This document shows, piece after piece, positions 1,536-46,782 of a DNA stretch of 64,000 nucleotides. Made by a program: the position numbers and the translations under genes. The notes beneath the pieces are model-generated. The model did no database searches, was not told the DNA's origin, and saw only the letters and a list, made by a program, of their open reading frames with translations. This DNA is from Schmidtea nova. Its lineage: Eukaryota. How positions within the stretch are numbered: the first letter of the stretch is position 1; the number at the start of each line of letters is the position of its first letter. Where the stretch lies: contig CM097882.1 in NCBI GenBank assembly GCA_044892505.1, positions 309,132,001 to 309,196,000 on the forward strand. The letters are read 5' to 3'.

Positions 1536-2307
1536 CGATATTATAACAGAGTTTCCTATGTTTACTAAAACAGATTAATTAATGCCATGGAGAATGGCAA
1601 AAATGTTTTGTAAAACATTTCAGTTAAAGATTATTTTTACTTAGTTTTACTTAAAGTGAAATAAATTCAAAAGCTTCATAAAAATTAAGATTTTCGACAA
1701 AGATTTCTGAAAATAAAATTATAGAATATTGATCAAATTAAAACGCTTGTTAAATAATCTCATATTACTATAAAATCCAAATAAAAGCCGTAAAATTAAC
1801 TTTTTAGGCTTACTTATCTATTTTAAAACATGGCTAAGAAAATATTTATGACTAATATTTATTTACATACCTGTGTATTATAAACAATGTTATACCATTA
1901 AAACTCTAAAGTTTAACAAGAATTAAGTAGTTTTAAATTAATTAAGGGTTACTGGGAGGGGCTAGAGCAAAAATACAAATAAATTGATTGATCTCATTAT
2001 TCATCAAAGAGTAAGTAGAAGTGTGGACGAGGTAACAAATATATATATGATGTCATCGCATGTGTTTATCAAATCAAAATCAAGAGACCCCGAGGAAGGG
2101 GTGCTTTTTTGCACACACACACGATGAGTCATCAATTTTTATGTTTAAGATCATTTTAATTACAAAAAATAACAAGGTCATCATAAGGTCAATGCCATTA
2201 TAAGGTCAAATTTTAAAAAATTCAAAAAACTTTAAAAATTACGAAAAAACATACCAAACTTCAAAAATTCAAAAAACTGATTATCAACATTATTTAAAAT
2301 ACATTTA

Positions 2308-4798: not shown

Positions 4799-5684
4799 GT
4801 ACTGAGAAACCTAAATTTCATGTGCATCATCAACAAATGTTCATTTACAGTAACATCATTGAAAACAAATGCTTTGTCTGCAATTGGTAAAGTACTGCCT
4901 ACTTTGACTAGTATGATTCCTGGTGTAACAAGTATGTCTAAAAAAAATGAACCTGAACCCAAGCCTGAACAAGTGGGGCCTAGACGTAAAAAGCATCTTT
5001 TGAACCGACCATCACCTCAAGCAGTCATTGAATATGGAGCATTTGAAGAAATATTTCCCTTGAATTATATCACAGATTTAAGAAATAATGTGGAATTTTA
5101 CATTAGCGGATCTCAATCTGAATATTTGGATTTGAATGATATTTTACTAACAGTTCAAGTAAAAGTTGTAAAGGCTGATAAAAAAGATTTTTTCTGCAAC
5201 TAATGAAGTTATACCAAACAATTTAGTGTTTCATTCTCAATTCAAGAATGCAATTCTTGGTTTTAACAATATCAAGATTGAAGGTGGAAACAATACTTAT
5301 GCACACAAGGCAATTATCGAAACTTTTAAATTATAATGTGATACTAAAGAAACTTGTCTTACTTCAATGGGATATGGAGGTTCTGACGAGAGAAAAGCAT
5401 GGATCAAAGGCTCAAAATTATTCACAATTTGCTCATCCTTATAACTAGATTTCATTACCAGGTGTCAATATTCACATCAGACTGAATTGATCTGATTCTG
5501 CAATATCACTATATTCAAGAAATGACGCGCTAAAATACAATAGTTGATGCAAACTTAATGATTTGTCGTGTTCGCGTTGAACCATATGTATTAGCTGGAG
5601 ATCAAGTTGAAACGTATACTCAAGATTTCGAAAATGATAATTATTGTACACCATATATGCAGTCGATTGTCAGAAATATGGGAT

Positions 5685-6434
5685 TGTAATAGTCAACAGA
5701 GAGTAATGCTATTAATAGTAATTGTAACAGTTGTGCGAATTTTTATATAAGTTGTTGTTGATGGGTATTATTTGTTTGGGCTTATAACTGATAATGAATG
5801 TAAGTAAGTGTGTGTTAATGAGGTAGATTGAAGAGCCCAGCAGAGTCTCCGGTAAAATTTCTGTCTTGGGACAACTAGGGTGAATACCATTTGTTAAAAG
5901 TGTGTGCTTTAAATAAATAAATAACAGAATAACGCAGAATTAATTTAACAATTTTTAATTTTATTTAATCAACAAGTTTAATGCTGCAAAAATATTGAAC
6001 TTATGTAATAGTCTTCTTATCATTCATAAAATTCATAAAATCATTATTTGTTATTTTCTAATTTCTATTCCTTAGTAATTTCTATAGTTATATTTTTGTT
6101 AAATATAGAAATTTTTTTAATGATTATTTTTAATTTCATAATTTCATAATTATGTAATAATTTTTACAAAATAACTTAAAAATTCAAACACACCACAACG
6201 AACAACACTAGTAGTATGTAAAAAGTAGACGGAAGCTGGTCTTAAATCACATATTTGAAAGTCATCCGCTTCACTCCTGACCTCTAAAACACATGCTTGC
6301 CGGCTTCCGTCTACCTTTTACATACTACTAACACTACATGGAAGGTCAGAAATCAAAAATAAAAATGGCACAAGCACCCAAAATTATCAAGACTAACAAA
6401 TCAGTCAAAAGCAAATTAGAATGCGTACACTTCA
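5685..6434. mobile_element. Solo LTR (750 bp including a nested MITE)
   Basis: TGTAATAG...CTTCA with 5-bp TSD GGGAT (5680-5684 and 6435-6439). Excision restores MCP IVRNMGYLNK. Shares a GAAGAGCCCA..AGAGTCTCC motif with 37930 and 48090. Confidence 0.8.
6210..6329. mobile_element. 120-bp Maverick-like MITE
   Basis: 30-bp TIRs (28/30 identical) beginning AGTAGTATGT; 6-bp TSD AACACT (6204-6209 and 6330-6335). Confidence 0.8.
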
Positions 6435-6754
6435 GGGATATTTGAATAAGAATTTGAATTGTTGTATAACTCTTGCTGATGTTAAAAACAAATACCTATT
6501 CTTTACATTTGTTTTGGTACCAGATTTCGATTTAAATAAAAGTCAATTACCTCAAAACGGAAATTCGAGACTGGATATAAAATTCGCTAAAGCTATTGAA
6601 GAACCAGTACATGTAATAATATAGTTAAAAAATGAAATTCAAATTACTACAAATTGAACAGTACTGGTTTGAACTCTGTTTAAAAAACTATCAGAATAAT
6701 CTTTGTTCAAAGAACAAACAGTATAAATGAATTATTCAAAGTCAACCAATTTTC

Positions 6755-7123
6755 ATGGAATAAGCTTTATTATTTATTAATTAAATTTATTTATTTAGTT
6801 CTAATCAGTTTAATGGAATTGGAAAACAGATATTGGGTAATAAATTTATTGGAGTATATCCACTAGATAAAATCTCGTACTTAGATGCCAACTAAGTCAT
6901 AATCGTTAATATTCAATCATCTACCCTGGGCATTAAACATTGGATAGCTGTATATGTGAAACCAATCAAGATTTACACATTCGATCCATTTGGACGTTAC
7001 TATCCAGGTTTATTAGTTAGTAAACTTCAAACATTAGGTAAACCAATTGTATATAATCGAACTCGGTATCAAAGTTCATTACCAATTACTTGTGGTCAAC
7101 ATTGCCTTGCATGGCTTAATTGA
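6755..7123 (+). pseudogene. Maverick adenain-like cysteine protease pseudogene
   Basis: KFIGVYPLD...HWIAVY...FDPFG...YQ...TCGQHCLAW, homologous to 28713-29015. ATGGA micro-exon with a decayed donor and a TTAG acceptor at 6797-6798. Confidence 0.85.
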
Positions 7124-7169
7124 ATGTTAAAAGTGTAAATAATGTAGTTAAATAAATGTTTTTAGAAAA

Positions 7170-22211: not shown

Positions 22212-22711
22212 AGTAGAGTAGGGGGAGCGCCCAAGAACAGGAACAGACCCCCCCTCCCCCCTAAAAAATTTTTTTTTTAACCCCCCCAAAAAAAAATTGT
22301 TTAAATGAAGTGAATTTTTTAAAATTTTTTATTTTGTTTAAATTAAGTGAATTTTTTATTTTTTATTTTGTTTAAATGAAGTGAATTTTTTTTTAATTTT
22401 AATTTTTTGTTTAAATGAAGTCAATTTAATTTATTATTTTNNNNNNNNNNNNNNNNNNNNNNNNNNNNNNNNNNNNNNNNNNNNNNNNNNNNNNNNNNNN
22501 NNNNNNNNNNNNNNNNNNNNNNNNNNNNNNNNNNNNNNNNNNNNNNNNNNNNNNNNNNNNNNNNNNNNNNNNNNNNNNNNNNNNNNNNNNNNNNNNNNNN
22601 NNNNNNNNNNNNNNNNNNNNNNNNNNNNNNNNNNNNNNNNNNNNNNNNNNNNNNNNNNNNNNNNNNNNNNNNNNNNTTAATATTTATTTATTTTTCGGTT
22701 CAGTGGGAAAA
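22212..22711. repeat. Left TIR of the Maverick (partner 37018-37517); contains a G/C-rich tip and a partly masked minisatellite
   Basis: 22212-22440 and 22677-22711 are reverse complements of 37294-37517 and ~37021-37057; mirror N-runs of 236 and 230 nt. Confidence 0.9.
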
Positions 22712-23023
22712 NNNNNNNNNNNNNNNNNNNNNNNNNNNNNNNNNNNNNNNNNNNNNNNNNNNNNNNNNNNNNNNNNNNNNNNNNNNNNNNNNNNNNNNNN
22801 NNNNNNNNNNNNNNNNNNNNNNNNNNNNNNNNNNNNNNNNNNNNNNNNNNNNNNNNNNNNNNNNNNNNNNNNNNNNNNNNNNNNNNNNNNNNNNNNNNNN
22901 NNNNNNNAATAATAAAAACTTAGAAAAAATTTTTAAAATAATAATACTAATATTTCATCACAGTGTAAATAATACAATAAAGTAGAAAATTAATAAAAAC
23001 AAAAAGAAATAAAATACAAATAT

Positions 23024-26000
23024 TTATTGAAATAAATCATCTTCATCTTCGTCATCTTCTTGAATATCTTCATCTTCGGTAATTGAATCCCCCATAACTG
23101 TAAAACTTTCTCTACAATGTCCATAAGCAATACTTTTATTTTTCTCAACCCAAAGTCTCTTATCATCGAGGTTAGTAAGTGCAATTTTTGAAAACTTATT
23201 AGTAAAAATTTGATGATTTTTACTCACAAATCGAGACTGCTCTACTGAAACTATAGTATTATTTCTATAACAATCAAGATAAGACCGATGCTTCAGTTTA
23301 GTATCTTTCAAACAGACGCCTTTAGCCTTTAAACATTCCTTATCACCTAAAAGACTATAACATTTAGGTCTAAGAAAAACCCATTCCTTATATTTATGAC
23401 CCTTATTTTCGTCTTTAAACTTTCCTATAACAGAATCAAGTTTTTTCGAATATAAAGAATGACTAGGGTCGTAATTCGATGTATCCAAAAGACAATCTCT
23501 AACCATCGCAGGTAACAGAATATCAAGCTTACAATTCTTAATCTCCAAGAAAAAAGAGTCAGTATCGCCTGCAACTATATTAATCTCACAGTTGAATTCA
23601 TTGCGATATTTTTGCAATTCTTCATACTGGAGTTGATACATTCTAAGTTTAGATAAATCCAGTACACTTTGGCCAATGTAGCTGGGTCTATCTAAACACA
23701 CAGAGTCCTTATTAAGCAAGACAGAAATTAGATCATCATCAATCCTATAAGTTTTTCTAAAGGTAGGTTTTGATGTATATGTAATCAGTTTTGATGCTGA
23801 ATTACAAAGTCGTAAATTGAGTCTTTTCTTAAGATTTTCGACAGTTTTTCCATAAAGACTATTATTTAAAAGTTTGTAATAGTTTTTATCTAAAACAAAC
23901 GATAAAGCTGCCCTAAGTTCAGTGTTTGTATCAATATATTTTTTAAAGATGGGTTTCTGTTTGTACTGAACAGCCCGATGAACTCGTGTTATTTTAACAC
24001 CCAAAGAAACAAAAAGCTTGAGAAGCCTCCAATGAACAACATAGTTGAACTTTGGATAATGCGTAAGCATTAACTTCTCAACTTTAGAATTGGGAGCACA
24101 CATTTTCTCTGCTGCAACCGGAAAGTCATTTAATTTATCGTGAATTTCAACTGGGATTACCAAGTCAACTTCAAATGTTACACCGATTGTTAAAAGTTCC
24201 AAGTCAGCATCCATCAAATTAATTAATTTATTTAATTTTTTCTCATCATTAATCCATTTAAATTTACCACAAGGTAATTTTTGGCTTAAGGCCCAACCGT
24301 ACAAATTATTAATATCGATGTAAAGTAGTTCAGTCGTTTCGGAGGATACTACATGATGCTTGTTGACAAATGTCAAACCACCACGGATCCCCCCTTCGAA
24401 AAAATTATACATCTCCATATCCTGGAGCAATTCAATAAGCCCACGACATACCTGGAATACCCAAGAAATTCAACGGTTCTAACCTATTATGAGAAATTGA
24501 CTTGGCTCTAAACTGTTGAAAGAAATCAGCAAGAAGAAAGACATCAAGTTTTAAGTATATCATCATATAGTCACAAAGAGTTTGACAATTAGTTTCCCTC
24601 CAAATAACTAATGCCTTGTCGTATTCAGCCTGCTTAACACCCTCCCAGATTGGTGGCAACTCATAAGTGTTGTTAAGAATTTCTAACGATGTTGCAAAAT
24701 CATAAGGAAAAATACCCTTACAGTCAACAATAGTCCCGGTGAATTCAGATCTAGTCAAAGGTAATGAAGTCAATGTTTTAACCGCATCATTTAAACTGGA
24801 GTTAATAAATTGACAAGAATCGATGAATTTAATTGTTAAATCGCCGACTCTTGCAGACAAAGTAAGGAATTTTTCACTCGTAGTTGGAATACATGATATA
24901 TTCCAAGTTGAAAAGTTTGCCAATCCATATTTAAGAATATGGTGCATGTCATACCCTTTTAAATTATGAAACACAACCGGTAGTTCCTTACGAATCTGTC
25001 TAGTAAGATTACATTTTAAGCAAGCAGCTCCCAAGAATTCACAAGTGTAGTGATCATGGTCTCTAACCGGATTAACTAAACGATTTTTACAAAGATAACA
25101 ATTTGTAGATGAGGCAAAAGATATTTTATTTTCAAATGTCATAATAAGTGGTTTTTTGAAATTGTTTTTATAAAAAGGAAAAACAATTTCTTCACCTATA
25201 TTATTAATTTCAGCAAGAAAATTAGTAACGCAATCAAGACCTAAGAAACTCTTGTAAATCTTTTCACCAGTGAAATTATTTACAAGTAAAAGACCGGCAG
25301 ATATTGGGACATGTCTTTGAAAGTACTTATCATCAGCAGGTAAGATTGCCTCAAAATCGGCGTAAACAACAAAAGGTGGAGTAATTGTTTTGCCCCAATT
25401 ACTTAATGTCAAATAAGGATTTTTAGGCAAAGTATATAGAGTTGTGCCTAATTGATTTTTAGAACACAACTCTTGATGACGAACAAAAGAATCTTGATAT
25501 CTAAACCCATTCAAGCATCGATGGCACCATATACTTTGAATACGAGTACCAGATATCGATTTATTGTCAAGATTTAAAAGCCTATCAAGATTGGTTACTG
25601 CTATATAATGAAAAGAGTCACCATTTTGTAAAAGAATCAAGTTAATAGGGATTCCGTCTACTACTTTCGACCTATGAATTATATCAATACACGGATGTTT
25701 GAAAACTTCAGGCTTAGTGTCTAGAATTCCAGATTCATCATATGAAAGTACATTAATCGCATATCCCGGGTTTTTAGCTTCAAACTTTGGGATATTGCAA
25801 AGACGCATAGGCAAATCAGAAGGACTAAAGTTAACATCAGAAAGATTGTAATTACTGATCCTATGTTTATTTTTACGACCAGATATCTCATCATATTTAA
25901 TAATTACCAAAACAGAATAGATAAAGCACAAGTCATCAGAATTCTGAACATTTACAACACAATGTTTTGATTTTAAAGATTCAGGAGTGTCAATACCACC

Positions 26001-26894
26001 GTAACCTATCAACCTACTAATTTCAGAAAATTTGGTTAATATGAAATGAATTTCATTAATTTTATTAATTATCCAGTTACTACCTCTATTATTAATTAAT
26101 GTAATTTTTTCATTAAGAATATTAATGCCATCGTCTATAAAGGTATCTGTGACACGTTTTGCAGAGTTAGAAATAACTATAGTTTGAAAAGCACCATCTT
26201 TTTCAAACTCAACTTCGATGCAAAATTGAATTTTAACCGTTCCCATGGTTTCAATTACATTATTTAATTTATTAATTAAATTATCAGGTACAAACATGCT
26301 TTTTAAATTCAAGTTAGTCACAATCATTTTCACTATAGCATGTGATTTATTTAAATCAAATTTAACAACAGGTAAAATGGAGCCACCAACCTGTACTTCA
26401 GGAACTAAAGAGTATTTATCGTCACAAATTTTATCAAAAGAACCACCAATTTGAATATTATCGATAGGATCAAAAGTATCTACAACCACAAAATCAGAAA
26501 GAATATTTAAATCAAGAATGTTATCAGGAATGATATCATTATCAAGAATGGTATCATTATCAAGAATTTTATCATCAAGAATGGTATCATTATCAAGAAT
26601 GTTATCATCATCATCAGAAATTACAACTATATCTGAAGGAACAACCGAATGAACAATTGAAGAAATATCATCAGAAAGAACTGACTTGTTAATTTTGATT
26701 GGGATTGGATTATTTTCATTACATTTTCTTTTAATCGGTAATTTAAAAATTGATTTTTTAGATGTTTTAAATTGATCTAAATGATCGCAATGAGTATTGT
26801 AAAAGTCAATATACGAAGAGGACGAAGTAGATTTGCAAAAAGGACAAATGTAGTAGGTTTTACAGTTATGAGGGTATGCATAATATCTTTCCAT
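23024..26894 (-). pseudogene. Protein-primed DNA polymerase B, split by one frameshifting deletion at ~24432
   Basis: VVYADFE (Exo I), VRDHDH..C..C insertion, FHNLKGYD, FIDS, YLKLDV, DINNLYG, KLLNNSLYGK, AGDTDS, RPKCY. The junction SWA|IELL lacks ~8 conserved residues. Confidence 0.93.
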
Positions 26895-27180
26895 TAATTC
26901 ATGGCATTTTACATCATGAATTGTGGAGTTGCAATATTTTTGATATATATTGCCTATAAATTTTAAAAAATAATATAAAAATAATGATCAAAATAATGAT
27001 AAAAATTATGATAAAAATATTATGATAAAAATTATGATAAAATATCAATGATGTATATCAAGTGTGTATACACACATTCAATTCAAAATATCGTAATATA
27101 TATTTATTGATTATGATTGGTCAAAATAATTTAAAAATTACTATATAAACGACTTATAAAATTAAAATAATCATTAAAAA

Positions 27181-27709
27181 ATGTATCAACTGAAAAGTAA
27201 GATTAATTAATTTTAAATGATTATTTTTAAATTTTCTTTTTCTAGAATCGAAAAGAATGTCAAAACAAGAAATAATGAAGATTATACTTGAGGAAAATCC
27301 TATTTCTTCATCTAATTTGGCATTGAATTCACCAGTTCAATTCATGCAATACTCGATGGAGTATTTGAAATATCCGATCAAATATTCATTTAAAGTAATT
27401 AATTAAAAATTATAAAAATCTAATTAATATTATTTACAGGAACCTGTTACATTGAAACAATGTCAATTCAATATTCAGGTTGGAAAAATCGGAGAAACTG
27501 ATAGAAAGAATCTATCAGAAATTTTAATGCTAATAAATAAAGATATTCAATTCAACGAGGAATTCACATATATGAACTGTAAAAAAGAAACAGATTTAGG
27601 CAAATTAGATGATAATTCAATGTATCAAATTCAAATTATCTTACAAGGATTTAAACAAACTGAAAACGTGATAAAACCTATTTGGAAAATTATCGAATTT
27701 CATGAATAA
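27181..27709 (+). CDS. Three-exon accessory gene (exons 27181-27196, 27246-27394, 27440-27709); putative OB-fold ssDNA-binding protein
   Basis: GT-AG introns of 49 and 45 nt give one continuous frame MYQLKKSKRMSKQE...WKIIEFHE. C-terminal S.Y.I.I.L.GF...P.WKI pattern resembles viral SSBs; homolog at 2308-2526. Confidence 0.65.
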
Positions 27710-27805
27710 ACTCTTGTTTAATTTGTTCTTTATTTTTCTTATTTACATTAAATATATTTTAAAAATAATATATAAATATATCATTTATAAAATATATTTA
27801 TTATA

Positions 27806-28090
27806 AAAATTAATTAAATTCATATAAAAATCTATCGATTATTAATTAAATTCATATAAAATCTATTAATTAAATCTATATAAAAAATCTAACAATTATT
27901 AATTAAATTCATATAAAAATCTATCGATTATTAATTAAATCTATATAAAGAAAAATCTATCAATTATTAATTAAATCTATATAAAAATCTATCAATTAAA
28001 TTAATTAAATCTATATAAAAAATCTAACAATTATTAATTAAATTCATATAAAGAAAAATCTATCAATTATTAATTAAATTCATATAAAAA
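27806..28090. repeat. Tandem array of ~9 units of ~24-36 bp (TAATTAAAT-C/TC-ATATAAAAATCT)
   Basis: Direct inspection; a second 33-34 bp array lies at ~28440-28610. Confidence 0.85.
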
Positions 28091-28113
28091 ATAAACATTT
28101 AATCAATATATAT

Positions 28114-28323
28114 TTAATCAATATATAAATACTTACATTTAAGTATCGATGGTTTAATTTTCTTTGACATAATATTGCTTGATTTAATTTTCATTGGTAT
28201 AACATTGTTTGGTATAATTTTCATTGACATAATATTGCTTGGTTCAATTTTCTTTGACATAATATTGCTTGGTTCAATTTTCTTTGACATAATATTGTTT
28301 GGTAAAATTTTCTTTGTTGTCAT
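28114..28323 (-). CDS. Small ORF made of 10-aa repeats (MSKKIEPSNI)
   Basis: 30-bp tandem repeats in frame; preceded by a 49-nt GTAAGT...TACAG putative 5'-UTR intron (28335-28383). Confidence 0.45.
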   Translation of the reverse strand: MTTKKILPNNIMSKKIEPSNIMSKKIEPSNIMSMKIIPNNVIPMKIKSSNIMSKKIKPSILKCKYLYID

Positions 28324-28712
28324 TATTTAAAAATCTGTAAAAAATAAATTTAAAAATATTCATAAAAAATTAAACTTACTTACTTAAGTTAGCTTGTTCG
28401 TAAAAATGTCGTTTATTTAAACGAAATTATTTTTAAATTAATGTAATTTAAAATTAATTAAATATTTTACAATATGTAATTTAAAATTAATTAAATATTT
28501 TTACAATATGTAATTTAAAATTAATTAAATATTTTTACAATATGTAATTTAAAATTAATTAAATATTTTTACAATATTAAAATTACTTAAATATTTTACA
28601 ATATGCAATTTTAAATTAATAAATTCAAACATAAAAATTCACTTTTGTATTAGCGAATACCATAAATAGAAAAAGTCGTTTTATAATAAAAGTCGTTTTA
28701 TAATAAAAAATT

Positions 28713-29092
28713 TTATTTCATATATTTTAGCCAAGCTAAACAATGTTGCCCACAGGTTTTTGTCATTGGATTTTGATATCGAATTCTGTTATATTCTATT
28801 GGTTTTAACATTGACGATAATTTTTTCAATAATATCGGTGGATAATAAAATCCCATTGGATCAAACACGTATATTTTATCGGGTTTATTATAAATTGCAA
28901 GCCAATGTTCACCTTTGAGGTTTGATGATTGAGTATTGACAATCAATGCTTTATTCACATCTATATACGGTATTTTATCTAGAGGAAAAACTCCTAGAAA
29001 TTCCGATCCAATCAATTTTCTAGCAATCTGATCTACCTGAATTGAACTAAAATCAATAAAATTTAATTAATAAAAAATAAATCTTACTTCAT
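28713..29092 (-). CDS. Adenain-like cysteine protease (2 exons: 29088-29092 and 28713-29046)
   Basis: FLGVFPLD, NTQ...GEHW, FDPMG, YQ...TCGQHC. A 41-nt intron gives the N-terminus MNSIQVDQIARKLIGSEF. Confidence 0.93.
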
Positions 29093-29153
29093 TTACTTTT
29101 TTAATTAATAAAAAAAAATAGTTTATATTAAACGAGTATTGTTTGAGCTCTGC

Positions 29154-30380
29154 TCAAACCAGTATTGTTCGATTAGCTGTAATTTGTAATTCCTTTTCAA
29201 AAACTCCATATACAATTACAGAAACTGATTCAGTCAATGGTGTACCAAATTTAATATCAAGTCTTAGATTACCTTGTTGTGGTAATTGACTTTGATTTAG
29301 GTCAAAATCTGGAGCCAAAACGAAGGTGAAAAAAGGATATTTACTTTTCCAATCTGCTAAAGTAATACCGCAATTCATACTCTTATTCAGGTAACCAAGG
29401 TTACGGACAATAGATTGCATATAACTAGTACTACAAATATCATTTTCAAAATCTTGAGAATATTTTTCACGATAATCACTTCCTTTCGATAAAGTTAATG
29501 ATTTGACATTAAAATGATCGTAAATAGAATAAGTTTCAGTAAAAGAACCACTATGTCTTTTATTTCCTTGAAATGCTACAAGAATAAAGTTTGGTAATCG
29601 TCTATCGCCAAAGATTTGTTCCTTATAAAATGAAGAAGAACCCATTGGCAATGAAAATTCTACAACTTCCTTATTTCTTATTGGATAAATTGCATTTCTT
29701 GTACCAAGTCCAATTTGATGCCCAGCATAAACTGATGGTTCTACTCGAACTCTTCTAACCATTAATTTTGCCTCTAATAATTCAATTATAGGTTCAATTT
29801 TTGTACATGTTAAACTATTGGATGGATTTGATCTCGTCAATTTAATTTGAACACTAACACCTGGTAATAAATACTTGGGCTGTTCCATGAAATCGAAATG
29901 TAATGGAGAACAAATTGAAAATGGTTTTGATTTTGCAATCCATGCTTTTCTAGTAAGATCATGGTCATTGTATCCCATTGGAGTTAAAGATGTGTGTTTT
30001 GTATCACTATTGTAGTTGAGAATAGTTTCAATCATGGCTTTGTGTGTAAATGTATCATTTCCTCCTTCAACTTTAGTAGAATTGAAAATTAATTCGGCTT
30101 CTTTAAAAAGAGTTTGGAAAAAGAAATTGTTGGGAGTAACATCAGCATCCAATCCTAAATTTTCACCCGATTTGTTTACAACTTTGACCTGAAGAGATAG
30201 TAAAATATCGTTCAAATCTAAATATTCAGTTTGAGATCCATTGATGTAAAATTGAATAGATGATGTCCCAGCATCTGTAATTGAATTTGTTGGGTAAATA
30301 TCTTCAAATGCACCATGTTCAATTACTGCTTGTGGAGATGGTCTATCAAAAACACATAATTCAGATTTTGCACTAATCAT
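29154..30380 (-). CDS. Major capsid protein (double jelly-roll), intact 408 aa
   Basis: Position between protease and penton; SEL.VF...Q, YLDL.D..L, KLTRS, P.FILVAF, FTFVL.PD, G.LRLDIKF are typical Polinton MCP motifs. Confidence 0.88.
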   Translation of the reverse strand: MISAKSELCVFDRPSPQAVIEHGAFEDIYPTNSITDAGTSSIQFYINGSQTEYLDLNDILLSLQVKVVNKSGENLGLDADVTPNNFFFQTLFKEAELIFNSTKVEGGNDTFTHKAMIETILNYNSDTKHTSLTPMGYNDHDLTRKAWIAKSKPFSICSPLHFDFMEQPKYLLPGVSVQIKLTRSNPSNSLTCTKIEPIIELLEAKLMVRRVRVEPSVYAGHQIGLGTRNAIYPIRNKEVVEFSLPMGSSSFYKEQIFGDRRLPNFILVAFQGNKRHSGSFTETYSIYDHFNVKSLTLSKGSDYREKYSQDFENDICSTSYMQSIVRNLGYLNKSMNCGITLADWKSKYPFFTFVLAPDFDLNQSQLPQQGNLRLDIKFGTPLTESVSVIVYGVFEKELQITANRTILV

Positions 30381-30784
30381 TTTTCAAAAATTGTTCCATA
30401 TCCTTTCATTCTTTTGTTTATATGTTTCTTCATATTTCTTTTTCGTTTAAGAATTCCGCCATTTTGTTTATTTTCAGTTTTATTTTCGTTAAACACATCA
30501 GTCACTTTACTAATTACTTGTGGTAAATGATGAATCACATCGGGCAATGAGTCTTTAATTTCAGAAATGACATTGGATTTTAGTGCAGGTAAAATCTTTG
30601 AATTATTATTTAACACATCATTGGCAGTTTTCATACCAAAATTTCCAATACGTCTAAGAATTGGTAATGCAAATCTACCTATCGTTTTCAACCAACCAGT
30701 TCCATATTGTTTACCTACAAAATACGGTAATTCTCCACCTGATTGGCTGTTGCTATAGAAACTGATAATATCTGGATTATTCAT
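30377..30784 (-). CDS. Conserved Maverick ORF upstream of MCP; putative virion core or membrane protein with QxGG/QxGxG motifs
   Basis: QSGG, QYGTG, an amphipathic WLKTIGRFALPILRRIG segment, QNGG and a basic tail. Confidence 0.7.
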   Translation of the reverse strand: MNNPDIISFYSNSQSGGELPYFVGKQYGTGWLKTIGRFALPILRRIGNFGMKTANDVLNNNSKILPALKSNVISEIKDSLPDVIHHLPQVISKVTDVFNENKTENKQNGGILKRKRNMKKHINKRMKGYGTIFEK

Positions 30785-31795
30785 TTATTTTACGGAAATG
30801 TAATGTCAAGTAAGTTTTGTCTTCTTTTGCAAATTTAACTATTTTTCCACTGTCATCACGAATATTGATTTCAATATTGTTTATATATGTGGAACTGACC
30901 GGTAAATACATTGGATTTTTCTCAACAATTTGAACCAAATCACCCTTTTTATGTTTTTCAACCCAAACACATTTCAATAGGGGAACTGACATGTCACCAA
31001 CAAGAATTGGTTGAATAATATTCGTATAGATGAACATTTGTTGATGAAGTTTTAAAACTTGTGGATAATATACGCCATCAATAATTTTGTCAAAGAATTC
31101 TTGTTCAACTAATCCTAATGAATTTGCTAAATTCCTACTAAATTTGACACTAGTTATATCATCTTCAAGAATTAATTTAATTAATTTTCCTTCTTTAATA
31201 TCAATCACTTTAAATGGATGTGGATAAAAAGTTTCAATTTGATCAGATAATTCAGTAATATTATTTATTATTAAATCGTCTTTGAAATTATCTGTGTATT
31301 CAACAGGAAAAGTATAAGTTATAGTAAATCGTATAGTATCATCAAGTTTTTTATTTTCATTTGCTGGAATTTTAATTTTGTTTAATTCATCATTAAATGT
31401 CACAGCTTTTTCTTGAAACCCTAATTTTTTAGCTTCATCAACACTATCAAATATTATTTGAAATATTATTTACAATTTACATTTAAAATATTGCCATCAA
31501 TATACATTAAATAATAATTAGAATCGTGACTTATATCATATTCTTTCTTTTGTTGGTTAAAATTGAAATATTCATAACTAGAATGTAATTCATTTCTAGT
31601 AAATTTTATACTTGAACTATTATAAAATGGAAATTCATTGTACACAAAAGTAAAATCCATAAGAGCAACTTCCCAACTACCATCCAAATAAATAGGGTTT
31701 TGATATTCAACATTGAATTTTCCAACTTTATTATTGGGATGTGTCAATGGACAAGAATTGCTTGGTAAATTAACATAAAAATCTTTTTTAATCAT
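30777..31795 (-). pseudogene. Minor capsid (penton) paralog 2, broken by a stop plus frameshift near 31450
   Basis: FYVNLPSN...WEVALMDF and QMFIYTNII...VGD...PLL...MYLPV...IEINIRDDSG...LTLHFRK, paralogous to 31788-32825. Confidence 0.85.
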
Positions 31796-32825
31796 TTATT
31801 TTACGAAAATGTAGAGTCAAATGAGTCTTTGTATCTTTTGAAAATTTAATTAATTTTCCACTGTCATCACGAATATTGATTTCAATGTTGTTTATAGTTG
31901 ATGTTGAAATCGGCAAATACATTGGATTCTTTATTTCAATTTGTACAACTTCGCCTTGGTCATATTTCTTGATCCAAATTGATTTAAGGAGGGGAACTCG
32001 TACATCTCCAACAGTCACTGGTTCGATAATGTTGCTGTAAATGAACATTTGCTGATGAAGTTGTAAAATTTTGGGGATTTTTACACCAATTATTTCGGTA
32101 TCAGTATATGTTTGTTTCTGTAGACTCAGAGATTTGGTTAAATTTGAATCAAAAGTAATTTTTGAAATATTATCCTGAAGAATAATTTTAACCAATTCAT
32201 TATTGACAAGTTTCATTTCTTTAAATGGAGATGGATTAATTTTCATTAAATATCCTTGTAATTCCGGTAATGACGTTATGAATAATTCATCTTGAAAATA
32301 ATAATTATTAACAGTTTTAATGTCATAATTTATTAAAATTCCAAATTGTTCAAGACTATTATCATTCGTGAATTTTGGTAATTTTAAACGACAATGGTCA
32401 TTTTCACTTGTAATTGATATATTTTCCAATCCAAAACTTTTTGCATGTTCAAGATCTGGAAATGTAATTTTAAATGGAACATGTGGGCAAACAATCACTA
32501 AATAATTATATTTTTCAATAAATACATCAGTGTCTGAACTAGGTTGAGAAACTATAACTTGAATTGTTTTATTTTGATTATTAATTCTCAAATAACTAAT
32601 TTCTTGAATTTCTCTTTTAGTTTCAATTTGAATAAAAGAATTACTATAATACGGAAACAAATTATACACAAAAGTAAAATCAATCAAAGCAACTTCCCAA
32701 TCGTCATTACTATTTAAATAAATCGGATTTTGAAATTCTACATTAAAATTACTAGCTTCATTATTAGGATAAATAAGAGGACATGCATTGCTAGGTAAAA
32801 TCATATAAAACTGGTTCTCTTTCAT
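31788..32825 (-). CDS. Minor capsid (penton) paralog 1, intact 345 aa
   Basis: FYMILPSN...WEVALIDF...MFIYSNII...VGDV.VPLL...YLPI...IEINIRDDSG...LTLHFR, the Polinton penton pattern. Confidence 0.88.
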   Translation of the reverse strand: MKENQFYMILPSNACPLIYPNNEASNFNVEFQNPIYLNSNDDWEVALIDFTFVYNLFPYYSNSFIQIETKREIQEISYLRINNQNKTIQVIVSQPSSDTDVFIEKYNYLVIVCPHVPFKITFPDLEHAKSFGLENISITSENDHCRLKLPKFTNDNSLEQFGILINYDIKTVNNYYFQDELFITSLPELQGYLMKINPSPFKEMKLVNNELVKIILQDNISKITFDSNLTKSLSLQKQTYTDTEIIGVKIPKILQLHQQMFIYSNIIEPVTVGDVRVPLLKSIWIKKYDQGEVVQIEIKNPMYLPISTSTINNIEINIRDDSGKLIKFSKDTKTHLTLHFRKIND

Positions 32826-32830
32826 AATAT

Positions 32831-33916
32831 TTATTTAATCAATTGTTTTTCAGATATCCAACTTGGAGTTTCATAGCCATGCCATTTAACGTAATATTGT
32901 TTATATTTCCCATCAGTTTTGGTTTTTAAAATCTTTTGAATTCTAAAAACTGTGGGAGCTGGAATAACTTGAAGTTCTTGTTCGTAGAATTTACCCTCGA
33001 TTACATTGTTTTCATGATCGGAAATAGTATACATGACAGGATTTTGATTAGTATCAACATTTGAGATTTGATATACTTCATCACTCCAATTACTATCAAA
33101 ATTTTTGATGAATGGAGAAGCACTAATTTTACTCATTCTCACATAATCGCCTACTTTATATTTCGGTTTTTTATTAATTGATTTTAATCTATCTTTTATC
33201 CATCCGTCAAAATTATTATTTGAATAAACATCGATAGGTTTCATTTTATTTAATCCCGAATGCGGTGATCGATTGTAACTGGAAATAATTTTCGGTAAAA
33301 CATTTATCCACGTTTTGTTACCTTGATACACAAAATACTTTTTCAAGCGATCTCTTAAAGTACGATTAAATCTTTCAACATGAGCAGCTTTGAATTGAGA
33401 AAATACAGAATAATGATTGATTCCTTTGATCACTTCTTTTACTTTGCTGTTATAAAACTCTTTTCCTAAATTAAAATTAATTAATTTTTAAAAATTTAAT
33501 TTATTACCCAAATCAGGTTGTAAATTACGTGGCTTCCCATCTTTAAATAAAGATTCAATAGCCTCAGCCATTTCATTAGCAGATTTAGTTTTTGTTGGAA
33601 TAGCTCGTGCATAACGGCTAAAAACATCAATACAAGTCAAAATATATTTGTAACCCTTGTTAATTTTAGAATAAGGAATCATTTCCATTAAATCCATTTG
33701 CCATAAATCGTTACCCCCAAAAGTTTTATATTTGCGTGTAGGAAATCTTTTCAACATTGGTTTATTTAAACTCTATGCCAATTGATCAGATAACCATTTC
33801 TGAGTTTCATTCTTTGAACTTTTTATTCTTTTTGCCAATTTTTTGACTGAACCAAAACCATCGGGATCTTTTGGGTTTGTCCATATCGTTTTTATATTCT
33901 TCATGATTTTCTTCAT
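32831..33916 (-). pseudogene. Retroviral-like integrase with C-terminal chromodomain; 42-nt intron (33466-33507) and premature TAG (33773-33775)
   Basis: WQMDL, CIDVFSR, spliced QPDLG|KEFYN, VERFNRTL, YYVKWHGY...SW. The relative at 53620 reads QLAYSLNKP where this copy has TAG. Confidence 0.92.
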
Positions 33917-33978
33917 TAATACAACAATTTGTTAAAATATTTAAATCTATATTATGTTTATTCGGTTCAGAAATTTTA

Positions 33979-34308
33979 TTACCCATTTCTTAAAGATGAG
34001 ATTGCGCTTATTGCTGATAATACTATTGGAATTAATGTACCGAGAAACCCACCCTTTTGTTTATATATTATTTTTCGCATAAGATTTCTATTTTTGGTAT
34101 TCACTAATGATAAAAGTGAATTTTTATGTTTTTGTAGTTCAATTTTCTTTGATCTACTAATATTTACATTACCATGAACAATATTAAAAACGACTTCAAG
34201 TAAATCATCAATAACAAAGGGTGGGAAAGCTTGTAAAATTATCATTCGCTTATTTGTTGGAGCTTTAACCAAAGCATTAAAATACGGTAAACTACGTTCA
34301 AATTTCAT
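33979..34308 (-). CDS. Conserved Maverick ORF with a C-terminal QKGGFL amphipathic helix
   Basis: NIVHGNV.IS...KQKGGFLGTLIPIVLSAI; homolog at 53771-54064 (KQQGGF). Confidence 0.75.
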   Translation of the reverse strand: MKFERSLPYFNALVKAPTNKRMIILQAFPPFVIDDLLEVVFNIVHGNVNISRSKKIELQKHKNSLLSLVNTKNRNLMRKIIYKQKGGFLGTLIPIVLSAISAISSLRNG

Positions 34309-34338
34309 GATTAAAATTTTTGTATATATTTATTTCGT

Positions 34339-34524
34339 TTATAATTTTATCCACTTCTTAACTTGTTTCTTTCTTTTACCAATCTTTTTGGTAACTTTTT
34401 TAACTAATTTAGATTTTCGATCAACTTTTTTAAGAAGTTTTCGATCAACTTTTTTAATCAGTTTTTGATCAGCTTTTTGAACAGCTTCTTTATTTAACTT
34501 GACAATTACTTTTTTAAATGACAT
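34339..34524 (-). CDS. Small Lys-rich basic protein (possible DNA-condensing protein)
   Basis: 61 aa, very Lys-rich, tightly packed between core genes; a Lys-rich duplicated region occupies the equivalent place at 54123-54604. Confidence 0.5.
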   Translation of the reverse strand: MSFKKVIVKLNKEAVQKADQKLIKKVDRKLLKKVDRKSKLVKKVTKKIGKRKKQVKKWIKL

Positions 34525-34545
34525 TATTATTTCATTTATTTGTTT

Positions 34546-35168
34546 TCAATTTTGTTTATAAACCGTGACTCCATTTTCGTTAAATATATCCGTTCGGATA
34601 CGTAAATCATCAGGACATTGTTGAGTAAAATCAAAGAATAAATATCCATGAGGAACTTTAGTAGCATCTTGAAATGAATTAATTAAGAATTTCCTATCAT
34701 TAGGGTAAGCTTGTCTTGCTAGAAAATCAATAATTGTAGCATCTCTTGGGTTTCTGAATATAACCAAGTATTGAACATTTAAATTACGAGTTCTGTGACT
34801 ACCACCTTGATGAAATAAATTTTGAGTAATGAAAATTACAGTAACTCCTAAATGTCTACTAATTTTTGTGAATAAATTATTAAAATCTTTTCTTTATTTG
34901 CTTCTTGGTACAAATCATCGATAATTATAACATCGCCTTGTCGTAATCTAGATGACCAGTTTTTATCAAACCCTTTTATAATTGTCATTTTTAATTTACA
35001 GAATTGATCTTGAGTCAGTCCATGTTCTTCATCAGCTCCTCTATGCCAGTAAATTTTATTGAATTTAGATTTAAACATTTTTGATTGCAACAATTTACAT
35101 ACAAATAATGTTTTTCCACTACCACTTGGGCCCACTATTTGATAAACTGCATCATTTCTTAATTCCAT
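34546..35168 (-). pseudogene. A32/FtsK-like packaging ATPase with a 1-bp frameshift near 34890
   Basis: GPSGSGKT (Walker A), IIIDDL (Walker B), then in another frame LFTKISRH...IFITQNLF...RNLNVQYLVIFRNPRD. Confidence 0.93.
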
Positions 35169-35227
35169 TTTTATTTAATTAATTATTAATTAATTTAATA
35201 TTGTTTATATTTATTCAATTTATAAAA

Positions 35228-35710
35228 ATGATAAGTAATATTAATTATATGGGCAAGTGTTTAGTTCCAAACATGTTATTTCCTGTTGGGAAACCCCAGC
35301 AAGTTATAGATAGGAGCGGGAAGTACCCTATTTTATTTTTCAGATCGGGGAAATGCCGTGTAATGGGTTGTAAGCAACCGTTAAAACCAGATGATTTGAA
35401 ATATAAAATTTCAGATTTAAAAATTCAATCGATCACTATAACATTGGATATGGGTAAATCCATAAATTTATACGAATTGCAAAATAAAACAGAGTGCTGG
35501 TACGAACCCGAAATATTTCCAGCTTTGAGATTAATAAATTATAACCCAATTTGCATTAATATTTTTTCAAGTGGAAAAGTTGTAATATTAGGAATTAAAA
35601 CATTGGATTATTTTAATCAAGTAAATGAAATTAAAAATTATATTAATTCATTAATTAATAATGAATTAATTGATGAAAAATATCTCGATTTATTATTTAA
35701 TTTTGTTTAA
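35228..35710 (+). CDS. TATA-binding protein (TBP)-like, 160 aa
   Basis: Two TBP repeats: ISNIN..LFP..ILFFRSGKCRVMG and KIQSITITLDMGKSINLYEL..YEPEIFPAL..INIFSSGKVVILGIK. Confidence 0.85.
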   Translation: MISNINYMGKCLVPNMLFPVGKPQQVIDRSGKYPILFFRSGKCRVMGCKQPLKPDDLKYKISDLKIQSITITLDMGKSINLYELQNKTECWYEPEIFPALRLINYNPICINIFSSGKVVILGIKTLDYFNQVNEIKNYINSLINNELIDEKYLDLLFNFV

Positions 35711-35745
35711 ATACATTGTTATTTTACAAATCCATATTTTTGAAA

Positions 35746-36131
35746 ATGTCTAAAAGTAAGTATTATTTTTAATTAACTATATTATTAATATTTTTTATTT
35801 AGCTTATTTATTTGAAGTGGTCCTGAAGAAAATTCAAGAATTATATCCAAAAATAAAAGATTCTTTGGATTATTGTGCGCCAGAGTTATTGGTTCATAAG
35901 ATATATAAGCTTACTGGGATCAATATCGAACAATTGCTCGAGATTCACTACGATATGGTGCTAGGAGCTGGAGTCAAATGCGTTGAAAATTGCATAGTTT
36001 GCAATGATTCACTAAGAGTATCCTGTGTAAACGGATGTGCATGCTGCCATGATTTTAAAAGAGATCATTCGGTGCATATCTTAATGTCAGAAATGCGTAA
36101 AGCATATTATAACGACATTTATAATTTATAA
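35746..36131 (+). CDS. Cys/His-rich 'YCAPEL' accessory protein (2 exons: 35746-35755 and 35803-36131)
   Basis: 47-nt GTAAGT...TTAG intron in frame; CVENCIVC...CVNGCACCHD; homologs at 3222 and 38780. Confidence 0.7.
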
Positions 36132-36429
36132 TAAAGTTTTGTGATTTAGTTGTTCTTTATTTTTATTTCAAAGTTTTGTGATTTAGTTGTTCTTTATTAT
36201 NNNNNNNNNNNNNNNNNNNNNNNNNNNNNNNNNNNNNNNNNNNNNNNNNNNNNNNNNNNNNNNNNNNNNNNNNNNNNNNNNNNNNNNNNNNNNNNNNNNN
36301 NNNNNNNNNNNNNNNNNNNNNNNNNNNNNNNNNNNNNNNNNNNNNNNNNNNNNNNNNNNNNNNNNNNNNNNNNNNNNNNNNNNNNNNNNNNNNNNNNNNN
36401 NNNNNNNNNNNNNNNNNNNNNNNNNNNNN

Positions 36430-36563
36430 ACTATAGATCAAATTTTTTTATAAACAATAACACAATATTTCGGCACAGCCTTTATCAAGTGTGTAAATAC
36501 ACACTTGATAAAGGCTGTGCCGAAATATTGTGTTATTGTTTATAAAAAAATTTGATCTATAGT
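36430..36563. repeat. Perfect 134-bp palindrome (66-bp arms, 2-nt loop)
   Basis: ACTATAGATC...GTGTGTA-AA-TACACAC...GATCTATAGT; no mismatch found by eye. Confidence 0.92.
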
Positions 36564-37847
36564 CATTATGAGAATTATTGATAATAATAATAAAAAAAGA
36601 TCAAAGGTNNNNNNNNNNNNNNNNNNNNNNNNNNNNNNNNNNNNNNNNNNNNNNNNNNNNNNNNNNNNNNNNNNNNNNNNNNNNNNNNNNNNNNNNNNNN
36701 NNNNNNNNNNNNNNNNNNNNNNNNNNNNNNNNNNNNNNNNNNNNNNNNNNNNNNNNNNNNNNNNNNNNNNNNNNNNNNNNNNNNNNNNNNNNNNNNNNNN
36801 NNNNNNNNNNNNNNNNNNNNNNNNNNNNNNNNNNNNNNNNNNNNNNNNNNNNNNNNNNNNNNNNNNNNNNNNNNNNNNNNNNNNNNNNNNNNNNNNNNNN
36901 NNNNNNNNNNNNNNNNNNNNNNNNNNNNNNNNNNNNNNNNNNNNNNNNNNNNNNNNNNNNNNNNNNNNNNNNNNNNNNNNNNNNNNNNNNNNNNNNNNNN
37001 NNNNNNNNNNNNNNNNNGTTATTTTTCCCACTGAACCGAAAAATAAATAAATATTAATTAAAATNNNNNNNNNNNNNNNNNNNNNNNNNNNNNNNNNNNN
37101 NNNNNNNNNNNNNNNNNNNNNNNNNNNNNNNNNNNNNNNNNNNNNNNNNNNNNNNNNNNNNNNNNNNNNNNNNNNNNNNNNNNNNNNNNNNNNNNNNNNN
37201 NNNNNNNNNNNNNNNNNNNNNNNNNNNNNNNNNNNNNNNNNNNNNNNNNNNNNNNNNNNNNNNNNNNNNNNNNNNNNNNNNNNNNNNNNNNNNAAAATAA
37301 TAAATTAAATTGACTTCATTTAAACAAAAAATTAAAATTAAAAAAATTCACTTCATTTAAACAAAATAAAAAAAATTCACTTAATTTAAACAAAATAAAA
37401 AATTTAAAAAATTCACTTCATTTAAACAAAAAAATTTTTTTTGGGGGGGGGTAAAAAAAAATTTTTAGGGGGGAGGGGGGGTCTGTTCCTGTTCTTGGGC
37501 GCTCCCCCTACTCTACTGATGATAGACTGATACGAAGAGATGTCACCATGAAGAACGAGATGCCTTTGGACTTATTTGTCCATCCAGATTTCCCAGATAA
37601 AGAAGACGCAATGTTATTTTAATATATTTTGTTGAAAAATCAAAAATTTTGTTTTTAATTTCATTCATTATGAATTGTTCGTTATTATATGTTAAATATG
37701 ACTTGTTGGTCATTTTTGTATTAGGTAGTATAGAGTAAGATTTTTCTTAAATATGATTTGTTCACCATTTTCTTAAATTTGGCTTGTTTGTCATTTTTAT
37801 TACATAGTATATGGTTAACGTTTTGATCAGTATATCTTGTTGATTAT

Positions 37848-38659
37848 TGTTATGTTTGCAAATTAGTTATTTGAGTTGGTTAATTTTGACTAGTACTAGT
37901 TGAGTGCTTGGGGATTTGTAAGTGCCCAAAAGAGTCTCCCAAAAATTATAGTGGGGACAATTGGGGTGCCTGTGTGTGTAATGTAGGATTTACTGTGATT
38001 AACAAAGATAATATTAAATAACGAATTAACAAATATCGAACAATAAACTATATTTTTGGAAAACAAAAATGTTACTCCCGTAGTAAAGAGATGAAGTTTG
38101 ATTTTTTTGTTATATTCTTATAAATCGAATTAGTTTATGTTTTCTTGTTTCCGGTATAACGATATTTTATAGAAAAATATTTGGTAGGAAAAAGATGTTG
38201 AAATTGACTTTGGTCAAGTTTCTTTTTATCCGGATATTATAACGATATTTTATAGAAAAGTATTTGGTAGGAAAATGGATGTTGGAATTGACTTTGGATG
38301 AGTTTCCTTTTATCCGGATATTATAACGATATTTGGTAGGAAAAGGATATTCTTTAGAAATTTTCTTTTAATATTTGCAACAATTTACTTTTAACAATTT
38401 TAATGAAATTGTCCGTAATATTAAGTTTAAATTCAATTAATCAATTTTCTTAATTTTTTGTTGTTAGCCTTACTATAGCTATTTGCTATAGTAAGCTAAT
38501 TTAAAATTTTAAAATTCAAAATTTCTAATTTTTTATAAAACCCAAAAATAACAATTAACAACAAAAAGGGGGGTCCTCGGTGACTGTGAGAGAGCCGACC
38601 ATAATAATGACGGCGCTTACAACAAAATATAAAAATAACAAAATTGTTAACATAATACA
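37848..38659. mobile_element. Probable solo LTR, same family as 5685-6434; internal ~80-bp tandem repeats
   Basis: TGTTATG...TAATACA with a possible TSD ATTAT (AT-rich, so weak); shares the AGAGTCTCC and AAAGGGGGGTC motifs. Confidence 0.5.
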
Positions 38660-41305: not shown

Positions 41306-41899
41306 CGTTCCCAATGGTGTACCTGGGTATAAATAACCAATTTTAGTACCCGGGTATACTAATTGGATTTATTATTTTTTCAGAATATTGCCATTTTCCA
41401 ATTAGAGTACCCGGGTATTATATTCAGAACTTTACAGTACATGCACATAACATTATTTATACACATATTAGCAGACACACGCATTAAATTTCGTAAATTT
41501 TCTTATACACACAAGAATAGTATTCAAGTTGCAATAGCGATGCATGTCATGTGCAATACAGATGCATGAATATGATTGTTTGAACACAGACTATGACGAG
41601 TATAAATAAGCAAACAAAATTACTCTTGTTCATAAAATGCAAAATCTTTTCGTAATTTTTAAAGTTTTTTGAAATTTTTGAATTTTTAAAATTTGACCTT
41701 AGGGTGACCTTGACTTCGCGGTGACCTTGACCTTAAGATGACCTAGTTGTTTTTTCATAAAATGACCTTTAAAAAATGAAATTTGATGACTCATTGTGCA
41801 CGTGTGTGCAAAAGAAATTAGGGAGTCATGTGATTTTAATTGGACGTACACATGCGATGACGTCATGTCTTTGTTCTCCCATCCACACTTCTCCATACT
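38770..41899. mobile_element. Terminal fragment of a family-B Maverick, interrupted by pogo
   Basis: Reverse complement of ~2010-3320 (YCAPEL ORF, subterminal region); ends ...CCACACTTCTCCATACT. Confidence 0.8.
39176..41437 (+). mobile_element. pogo-like (CENP-B/DDE_1) DNA transposon, decayed
   Basis: TIRs CCGTAAAGTTCTGAATAT / CTGTAAAGTTCTGAATAT with TA TSD; the empty site is visible at ~2955-2965. Motifs include HTH, YNMDETP, MDSYGCH and LQSLDVSIN. Confidence 0.92.
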
Positions 41900-45885: not shown

Positions 45886-46782
45886 CTAATCTTCTATGGG
45901 TGGTTCTTTGAAATGTTCACCTTTATAAGGACTATGAATTATTCCCATTGTGAAAGCGGGACTGCTTGGTAAATGAGAAGTTACCTAAATTGCAGTAAAA
46001 TTTTATTATTGAAAATAAAAAATAATTAACCATTTCATGCTTATAATGTGCTGGACTAGGTGTTAATAGTCTCGAATCTGGACATTGGGCTCCAGAACCC
46101 ATTGTGTATTTTGGAGAAGCAGTAAGATATAAATCTGGAGAACCGACTTTATAATCAGCTGGCCCAGGCCCCTTGAAGGATATCATTTAAAATTTATTAA
46201 TACTTAATACTTACTTCTCTAGATTTATCATAATGGAGATATTGTCCCACAGAATATTTAGGACCGCTGGGTTTGTCACTGGTAATGTCAGGTGGTGGTA
46301 GTTTGTACTCATTCGGAGCTATTTAAATTATATTTTAATACCATCAAAATTTTTTTATCACCTGGTGTCACATTTGAAGTAAGTTCTGTTAAGTATTTTC
46401 CCATAACATGTTCAGGAGCTTTCGGCCATACAACATTATTCGCTTTAGTTATGTCATAATCACTTGGACCTGGGGTTACATCTTTTGCATATGGATGTAA
46501 AAGCTGTCCAATTGAGTATTTTGGAATAGAATCATAGCCATGATGAGTCAGTTTTGTGTCTGGTCCATATGCTGCTGGCCCTGGGCTTTGGTCTTGGCTA
46601 TGTGGGAAAGTTTTCAATCCGAAAGAATAAGCTGGAGCCTTAACATGAACACTTCTTATATCATGACCTTTTTCGCCGACTAATGTTGGTGCACCATAAA
46701 TAGGACCTGGATTTGCAAACTGGGCAGCAATCGGCATTCTAGGTCTTGTGTAATTATAGCCCCTGACTTCATCTTTTGCCAT
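45886..46782 (-). CDS. ODF3: ODF3/SHIPPO1 (CIMAP1)-family PGP-repeat ciliary protein, 254 aa; exons 46362-46782, 46215-46318, 46031-46171, 45886-45984
   Basis: PRMPIAAQFANPGP..Y..P.LVG..GHD.RS...KAPAYSFG and repeated (S/T)PGP..Y motifs; three GT-AG introns (43, 43, 46 nt) keep the frame. Confidence 0.9.

Follow-up and report, generated by a model that had tools for sequence, protein, structure and literature searches.

A 120-bp element bounded by inverted repeats lies at 6210-6329 of the 64,000-nucleotide stretch of DNA analysed here (the window), and it is probably derived from a Maverick. This origin is the leading reading because the end motif and the 6-bp TSD match a published signature, because the window is dense in Maverick sequence, and because the best-preserved local Maverick, family A, combines AGTAG ends with an exact 6-bp TSD, GATGAT, which serves as the local reference for a 6-bp TSD. 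The signature in question, (AGT)2//(ACT)2 with a 6-bp TSD, is given as the commonest one for vertebrate Maverick ends by Barreat and Katzourakis (2021, PMC8097293). For its present form we favour a mobile mini-Maverick, MITE-like and non-coding, moved by an autonomous Maverick that is absent from the window, and we hold this reading at somewhat under an even chance. The likelihoods attached to the readings throughout are judgements and were not computed. The features discussed are collected in Table 1.

Table 1. Positions, in the window, of the 120-bp element, of the sequences that enclose it and of the local Maverick families.
Feature	Position	Strand	Remarks
Left TIR, 30 bp, begins AGTAGT	6210..6239	+	28/30 complementary to the right arm
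Core, 60 bp, non-coding	6240..6299	.	15-nt direct repeat, imperfect, one copy at each end
Right TIR, 30 bp, terminates ACTACT	6300..6329	-	Arm weakly like the ends of an older Maverick family (family B)
AACACT, left copy	6204..6209	+	6-bp TSD, or 4-bp TSD ACAC at 6205-6208 with 6209 in the element
AACACT, right copy	6330..6335	+	6-bp TSD, or 4-bp TSD ACAC at 6331-6334
Host insert, 750 bp, TGT…TCA, probably a solo LTR	5685..6434	.	TG…CA ends and 5-bp TSD
GGGAT, left 5-bp TSD of host insert	5680..5684	+	
GGGAT, right 5-bp TSD of host insert	6435..6439	+	
Maverick major capsid pseudogene, part 1	4997..5683	+	Frameshifted, gapped; tblastn against the intact ORF 29157-30383
Maverick major capsid pseudogene, part 2, past the host insert	6436..6621	+	aa 330-391, 71%
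Maverick cysteine protease pseudogene, same old element	6794..7126	+	Intact homolog is Pfam Peptidase_C5
Family A, best-preserved Maverick, 15.3 kb	22212..37517	-	AGTAGAGTAG ends, TSD GATGAT, pPolB, protease, capsid, integrase
Old Maverick (family B) with the capsid pseudogene, probable left end	2010..2039	+	Related ends at 17213 (+) and 41899 (-)

The preliminary description of this locus had reported a 120-bp element with 30-bp TIRs matching at 28 of 30 positions and starting AGTAGT, a 60-bp core and flanking AACACT repeats, all of which was confirmed by re-measurement. The left end reads AGTAGT and the right end ACTACT, and complementarity between the arms breaks off sharply beyond base 30. 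Both mismatches between the arms are transitions (6224/6315 and 6237/6302), the second pair in a CpG context. AACACT directly adjoins the element on each side. Of 60,702 window positions, 87 show an exact 6-bp flank match over a 120-bp span; from local composition the rate is about 0.004. The arm pattern, with up to three mismatches allowed, occurs twice in the window against an expectation of zero from 100 shuffles.

The element is 41% GC, compared with 26% for the remainder of the host insert, and it is non-coding, with stops in all six frames. Folded as single-stranded DNA, its hairpin is calculated at -26.1 kcal/mol. The fold z-scores are -8.1 as DNA and -9.7 as RNA, and the hairpin is beyond chance because in each case none of 200 shuffles folds as well. 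An RNA gene was considered, and a microRNA was rejected, since the Rfam matches are sub-threshold hairpins, the best being MIR7996 at 24.8 bits against a cut-off of 119. The two copies of the direct repeat in the core (6243-6257 and 6285-6299) agree at 12 of 15 positions, a result equalled in 14 of 2000 shuffles with parameters chosen post hoc; they could be subterminal binding sites. Three bases past the right TSD an ATG begins a frame of about 35 codons that is free of stops and runs to the end of the host insert (6339-6446, + strand), which may be chance.

The element sits about 100 bp from the right end of the host insert, which measures 624 bp once the element and one TSD copy are subtracted. 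The host insert in turn interrupts a decayed Maverick gene. Homology to the major capsid protein halts at about residue 330 at position 5683 and restarts at residue 330 at position 6436 (tblastn segments 5594-5683 and 6436-6621); the family of the intact capsid ORF at 29157-30383 includes F54H12.2-like proteins. The structural criteria for a solo LTR, as set out in a part of PMC8969392, are TG…CA ends with a 4-6-bp TSD, and the host insert has TGT…TCA ends with GGGAT on both sides. Judged by those ends and that 5-bp TSD, it is probably a solo LTR. None of the LTR pairs within the 64-kb window matches it, and it shares only a 74-bp motif with 48071-48141. The earlier picture of an insertion within an insert within a Maverick capsid pseudogene held up, with the proviso that the term solo LTR stands without a matching LTR copy in the window.

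The shared motif is common to 5810-5883, about 37900-37980 and 48071-48141, in AT-rich segments that are otherwise unalignable. The three segments are probably LTRs of related families. A G-run with a small GC-rich hairpin after it, 430-640 bp downstream, is also present in those near 37.9 and 48.1 kb.

These segments bear on one alternative, in which the hairpin is a constant component of the LTR family, either as an intrinsic structure or as an insertion in a master copy that was passively spread by retrotransposition. The window offers no empty copy of the host LTR, which suits this idea; a look for an empty site in the relatives near 37.9 and 48.1 kb found at most the 74-bp motif shared, and no convincing TG…CA or TSD boundaries in these AT-rich segments. 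The same relatives are without arm sequence, which speaks against a fixed hairpin but is a weak test, because their alignment to the host insert covers a short motif only. The exact hexamer repeat at the flanks, expected at about 0.001-0.004 of sites, and the difference in GC between the element and the rest of its host also argue against a fixed part of the LTR, and we consider that account very improbable.

The length of the TSD depends on where the ends of the element are drawn. AACACT has A as its first base and T as its last, which lengthens the inverted repeat by one base, and the element can also be read as 122 bp at 6209-6330, with TAG…CTA ends, 31-bp arms and a 4-bp TSD, ACAC. The empty site is identical under both registers, and about 30% of true 6-bp TSDs carry an ambiguity of this kind. 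The flank geometry has a probability of 0.123 under the 4-bp reading and 0.123 under the 6-bp reading, so the end motif decides the register. Among 1362 TAG sites of the window only 6 extend to TAGTAGT, or 6 of 456 given TAGT, and given this rarity the motif would be a coincidence at about 0.4-1.3% under the 4-bp reading. From these counts we estimate that the AG register, with its 6-bp TSD, is favoured over the TAG register by roughly tens-fold. The 6-bp TSD of the preliminary description stands as an exact AACACT repeat, while its length is not unique, a point which that description had missed.

AGTAGT is found at 23 of 123,828 window sites, and none of the remaining 21 AGTAGT/ACTACT sites in the window pairs as a terminus; the one at 44302 appears to be internal to a longer repeat. 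A scan of the window for short TIRs gave 503 raw matches and 43 rows after removal of arms with fewer than five G/C, and it also yielded spurious 6- and 8-bp "TSDs" within the perfect hairpin at 36.4-36.6 kb, a reason for care with TSDs assigned in this way.

The choice of register is closely tied to a second alternative, that the element is an ordinary cut-and-paste DDE MITE, either AcademX-like at 122 bp with a 4-bp TSD or unclassified or hAT-like at 120 bp with a 6-bp TSD, with the Maverick motif coincidental. MITEs of the cut-and-paste kind greatly outnumber Maverick ones, which counts for this account, and Academ ends often begin TAG, which counts for its AcademX-like form. The 122-bp register, with its identical empty site and 31-bp arms, also speaks for it, and hAT, Tc1 and pogo-like elements are present in the genome. 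AcademX is described as making 3- or 4-bp TSDs in the pertinent part of PMC10045372, and the supplements to PMC2817418 list short families outside the Mavericks that have 4- or 6-bp TSDs. However, this account requires TAG to continue as TAGTAGT by chance, at the rates given above, and it leaves unexplained the likeness of the right arm to family B that is described below. Nor was a transposase element matching the 120-bp element found in the window, by Pfam searches of 36 and 60 reading frames or by TIR scans, although Pfam may lack an Academ model. All told, a cut-and-paste MITE seems to us unlikely, while keeping a real share of the probability.

A third register is formally possible, at 118 bp (6211-6328) with GTAG…CTAC ends and a TA duplication. 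It would make the element a Tc1/mariner-type MITE inserted at the junction of a pre-existing tandem pair of AACACT. TA flanks 6211-6328 on both sides, and the window contains Tc1 and pogo-like elements. The tandem hexamer that must already have been present at the TA is found, however, at only 2 of 5324 TA sites containing G or C; counting pure A/T segments as well gives 127 of 5954. The TA-duplicating 118-bp reading is unlikely, and as a full account of the locus the Tc1/mariner-type MITE receives hardly any weight from us.

Returning to the Maverick reading, the ends of the element can be compared with those of the local Mavericks. All Maverick ends found in the window begin AGTA. Those of family B, near 2010, 17213 and 41899, begin AGTAAG or AGTATG. 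The end at 2010 is probably that of the old Maverick with the capsid pseudogene, and its pairing with 41899 as one element is tentative because the flanking hexamers match at only 4 of 6 positions. Against each of four local Maverick ends the element matches at 6 of the first 11 bases. A Repbase rule of thumb, as quoted in part of PMC4455052, expects non-autonomous elements to have the same TSD length and no more than one mismatch over positions 1-11, so that the element falls outside this rule with respect to the Maverick ends in this window. Local alignment of the element to the first 230-300 nt of the local Maverick ends was not significant (p 0.11-0.88). Family A was tried as TIR partner of the element and rejected, the end comparisons and alignments being against it.

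When the right arm is offset by one AGT (three bases), its matches to the three family B ends number 16, 14 and 16 over 21 positions. The score is reached by 5 of 17,455 sampled 30-mers of the window, by 1 of 533 30-mers starting AGTA, and by 23 of 2000 doublet shuffles, in a test devised after the alignment was seen. The left arm shows no significant likeness to family B (395 of 2000 shuffles), and the right-arm signal over 90 nt weakens to p 0.20 once the first six bases are taken away. Based on these comparisons, the likeness of the right arm to family B weakly suggests a relationship and is a lead, not proof. The earlier statement that the TIR is unlike both larger families agrees with the 6 of 11 matches to each, and it needs qualifying for the weak likeness to family B that appears after the 3-base offset.

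Several observations were made on the Mavericks themselves. In family A the pPolB is spread over two overlapping frames, and its N-terminal part has an Endonuclease VII-like domain (23024-26987, - strand). The integrase-chromodomain ORF is interrupted and split across two frames near 33.47 kb (32831-33960, - strand), and a PDB sequence search with the integrase fragment gave no match. A small ORF at 33979-34329 (- strand) matches adenovirus core protein X. An ORF at 35183-35710 (+ strand) is TBP-like (Pfam TBP, E 9.7e-17, one repeat matched) and belongs to a sizeable family of 100-200-aa proteins with 118 clusters at E up to 1e-10; a TATA-binding-protein fold in a Maverick could serve as a transcription or packaging factor. 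Family A also contains a near-perfect hairpin of about 130 bp at 36430-36562, between assembly gaps. A third, decayed block of Maverick genes at 51265-54954 (- strand) includes protease, capsid, integrase and others, and is about 72% identical to family A.

The window as a whole is crowded with sequence of the Gypsy-like, hAT, Tc1, pogo-like and Maverick types. A nested cluster spans 2010-41899, where an old Maverick apparently holds the solo LTR, a Gypsy element at about 7.8-13.2 kb, hATs at 13.5-16.3 and 19.2-21.7 kb, the Maverick end at 17213, family A just past a pPolB pseudogene, and a pogo-like element at 39.1-41.4 kb. Three other short units bounded by TIRs were seen. One, of 71 bp at 41347-41417, is the end of the pogo-like element; another, of about 135 bp at 49234-49366, is cut off by an assembly gap; the third is a hAT-like MITE of 425 bp at 55835-56259 with imperfect flank repeats. 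The only clear host gene seen is represented by exons at 45935-46803 (- strand) similar to outer dense fiber protein 3 (ODF3/SHIPPO repeat). This gene shows the window to be animal DNA; its named matches are in molluscs and a lizard, the best being molluscan at 48% identity, and a search for it among longer proteins gave no match.

The 120-bp element itself is present once in the 64-kb window. Relatives were sought there by blastn, by the arm pattern with the same tolerance of three mismatches, and by local alignment against shuffles, and none was found; the observed score was attained by 35 of 40 shuffles for the core, 9 of 40 for the arm and 36 of 40 for the whole element. The core has no significant match elsewhere in the 64-kb window and corresponds to no longer element there, and an autonomous partner with the 30-bp TIR was not found in the window. 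Plasmid sequences gave no match to the element, and phage sequences gave six records with fragments at E 0.3, which is chance level. Two patterns run against prokaryotic genome contigs had 0 matches, which is expected for an animal element and uninformative.

A single copy is what would be expected from a further alternative, in which a full Maverick inserted here with its 6-bp TSD and then collapsed in place, by deletion or abortive gap repair, so that the 120-bp unit never moved; the preliminary description had missed this alternative too. About 30 bp would come from one end of that Maverick and about 90 bp from the other, and the "30-bp TIR" would be the shorter stump of a long TIR. Such a one-off remnant predicts the sharp end of complementarity at base 30, the Maverick motif and the TSD as well as the single copy, and the region is full of nested, decayed Mavericks. 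Maverick TIRs are, in addition, usually hundreds of bases long according to a section of PMC8097293. Against a remnant, no longer element in the window has a match to the core, and the direct repeat at the core ends is a weak sign of an organised unit. We also infer that a short element encountered at random in 64 kb would more often belong to an amplified family than stem from a unique event. We think a collapsed Maverick rather improbable, and place it a little behind the cut-and-paste MITE. Because a remnant collapsed in place leaves the same footprint, the single copy says nothing about a minimal mobile unit.

The evidence on the favoured mini-Maverick can be weighed in the same way. Its sharply bounded 30-bp arms and its size, within the 0.05-1 kb range of MITEs, fit a MITE. 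On the other hand, there is one copy in 64 kb, and mobility at 120 bp is thus something we infer. The 30-bp arms are below any reported intact vertebrate Maverick TIR (shortest 46 bp), the TSD is readable as 4 bp, and a 6-bp TSD is not exclusive to Mavericks. Of the interpretation offered earlier, a Maverick origin is plausible given the motif match. The further claims, that the element is mobilised in trans and defines the minimal cis requirement, go beyond what a single copy with no TIR partner in the window can show; they would call for several copies that have identical ends but differ in their 6-bp TSDs.

If the element is a mini-Maverick, it could have arisen in three steps. In the first, internal deletion would have shortened a Maverick, probably a distant relative of family B, with one extra AGT added at the terminus. 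In the second, the 30-bp arms would act as the ends bound and cleaved by an integrase, and a retroviral-type Maverick integrase would have inserted the element with a 6-bp stagger. The third step is the weakest and has two options. In the published racket model, an excised single strand would fold on its arms and be copied by the protein-primed pPolB by way of the AGT repeat; in the other option, the integrase alone would move the element by cut-and-paste, with no polymerase. We favour integrase-driven movement as the core step and regard a role of pPolB as putative.

The excision-replication-integration model for Mavericks is itself a proposal, as summarised in PMC4196379, and the same summary states that protein-primed replication is thought to rely on terminal tandem repeats. 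The extra terminal AGT unit would suit the terminal repeats of protein-primed replication. A more far-reaching reading, which we hold a little less likely than not, is an amplified family of Maverick satellites of about 120 bp, for which two 30-bp ends with AGT repeats would suffice for the integrase, and perhaps the polymerase, to excise, copy and re-insert the element, so that genomes of capsid size would not be required.

Such a family would matter in several ways if it is real. It would provide candidate cis sequences of a length suited to synthesis and assay, it would mean that integration needs no genome-length, packageable substrate, and it would be a natural minimal substrate for the still untested model of Maverick transposition. 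It would also suggest that some unclassified short animal elements with "6-bp TSDs" are Maverick parasites. Should the element instead be a collapsed Maverick or a MITE of Academ type, there would be nothing unusual about it. Kilobase-sized non-autonomous Polinton families are catalogued in Repbase/Dfam. No description of a MITE-sized Maverick derivative was found by full-text searches of the literature, which led to general papers on transposable elements and to work on Tlr1. Mavericks have been characterised mainly in silico, as noted in a part of bioRxiv 10.1101/2023.08.22.554363.

Several known systems resemble the element in part. MITEs are defined in a section of PMC8969392 as non-coding, TIR-bounded and TSD-flanked elements of 0.05-1 kb, and the 120-bp element is short, non-coding, TIR-bounded and TSD-flanked, with a TSD of ambiguous length and one copy in 64 kb. 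Unlike cut-and-paste MITEs, it has ends and a TSD that point to a Maverick integrase and not to a transposase. Non-autonomous AcademX elements would fit the 122-bp register, with its TAG…CTA ends and the 4-bp TSD ACAC (TSD length from part of PMC10045372), but in that comparison the Maverick motif has to be a product of chance, and no Academ element was identified in the window. IS3EU/GingerRoot elements are given TA..TA termini and a 6-bp TSD in the same part of that paper; here the TA..TA register (6209-6330) has flank repeats of only 2 and 4 bp, and the 6-bp register has AG..CT ends. The C. elegans family R178, listed in the supplements to PMC2817418, is short (about 300 bp) and has a 6-bp TSD but starts CAC.

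The remaining comparisons are with Mavericks and their derivatives. Non-autonomous Polintons and Tlr1, as treated in a section of PMC5499653, are like the element in having Maverick-type ends without the full gene set; Tlr1 differs in being large and coding, and is now viewed there as a Polinton-like virus. As a Maverick proper the element is too small, its TIRs are short, and it has no protein-primed PolB or integrase genes. It measures 120 bp and has 30-bp arms, against lengths of 12.7-24.6 kb and TIRs of 46-1447 bp for the vertebrate elements covered in PMC8097293, and Maverick TIRs are put at 100-1500 bp in a general statement of the bioRxiv paper; it is also non-coding, with no cognate autonomous element in the window. 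The terminal micro-repeats of Mavericks are (AGT)2//(ACT)2 or (AG)3//(CT)3 in the same section of PMC8097293, and in its 120-bp register the element has the first of these, AGTAGT…ACTACT. With the Mavericks and Polintons described there, it shares the same six-base motif at both ends and TIRs, together with a flanking duplication that can be read as 6 bp.
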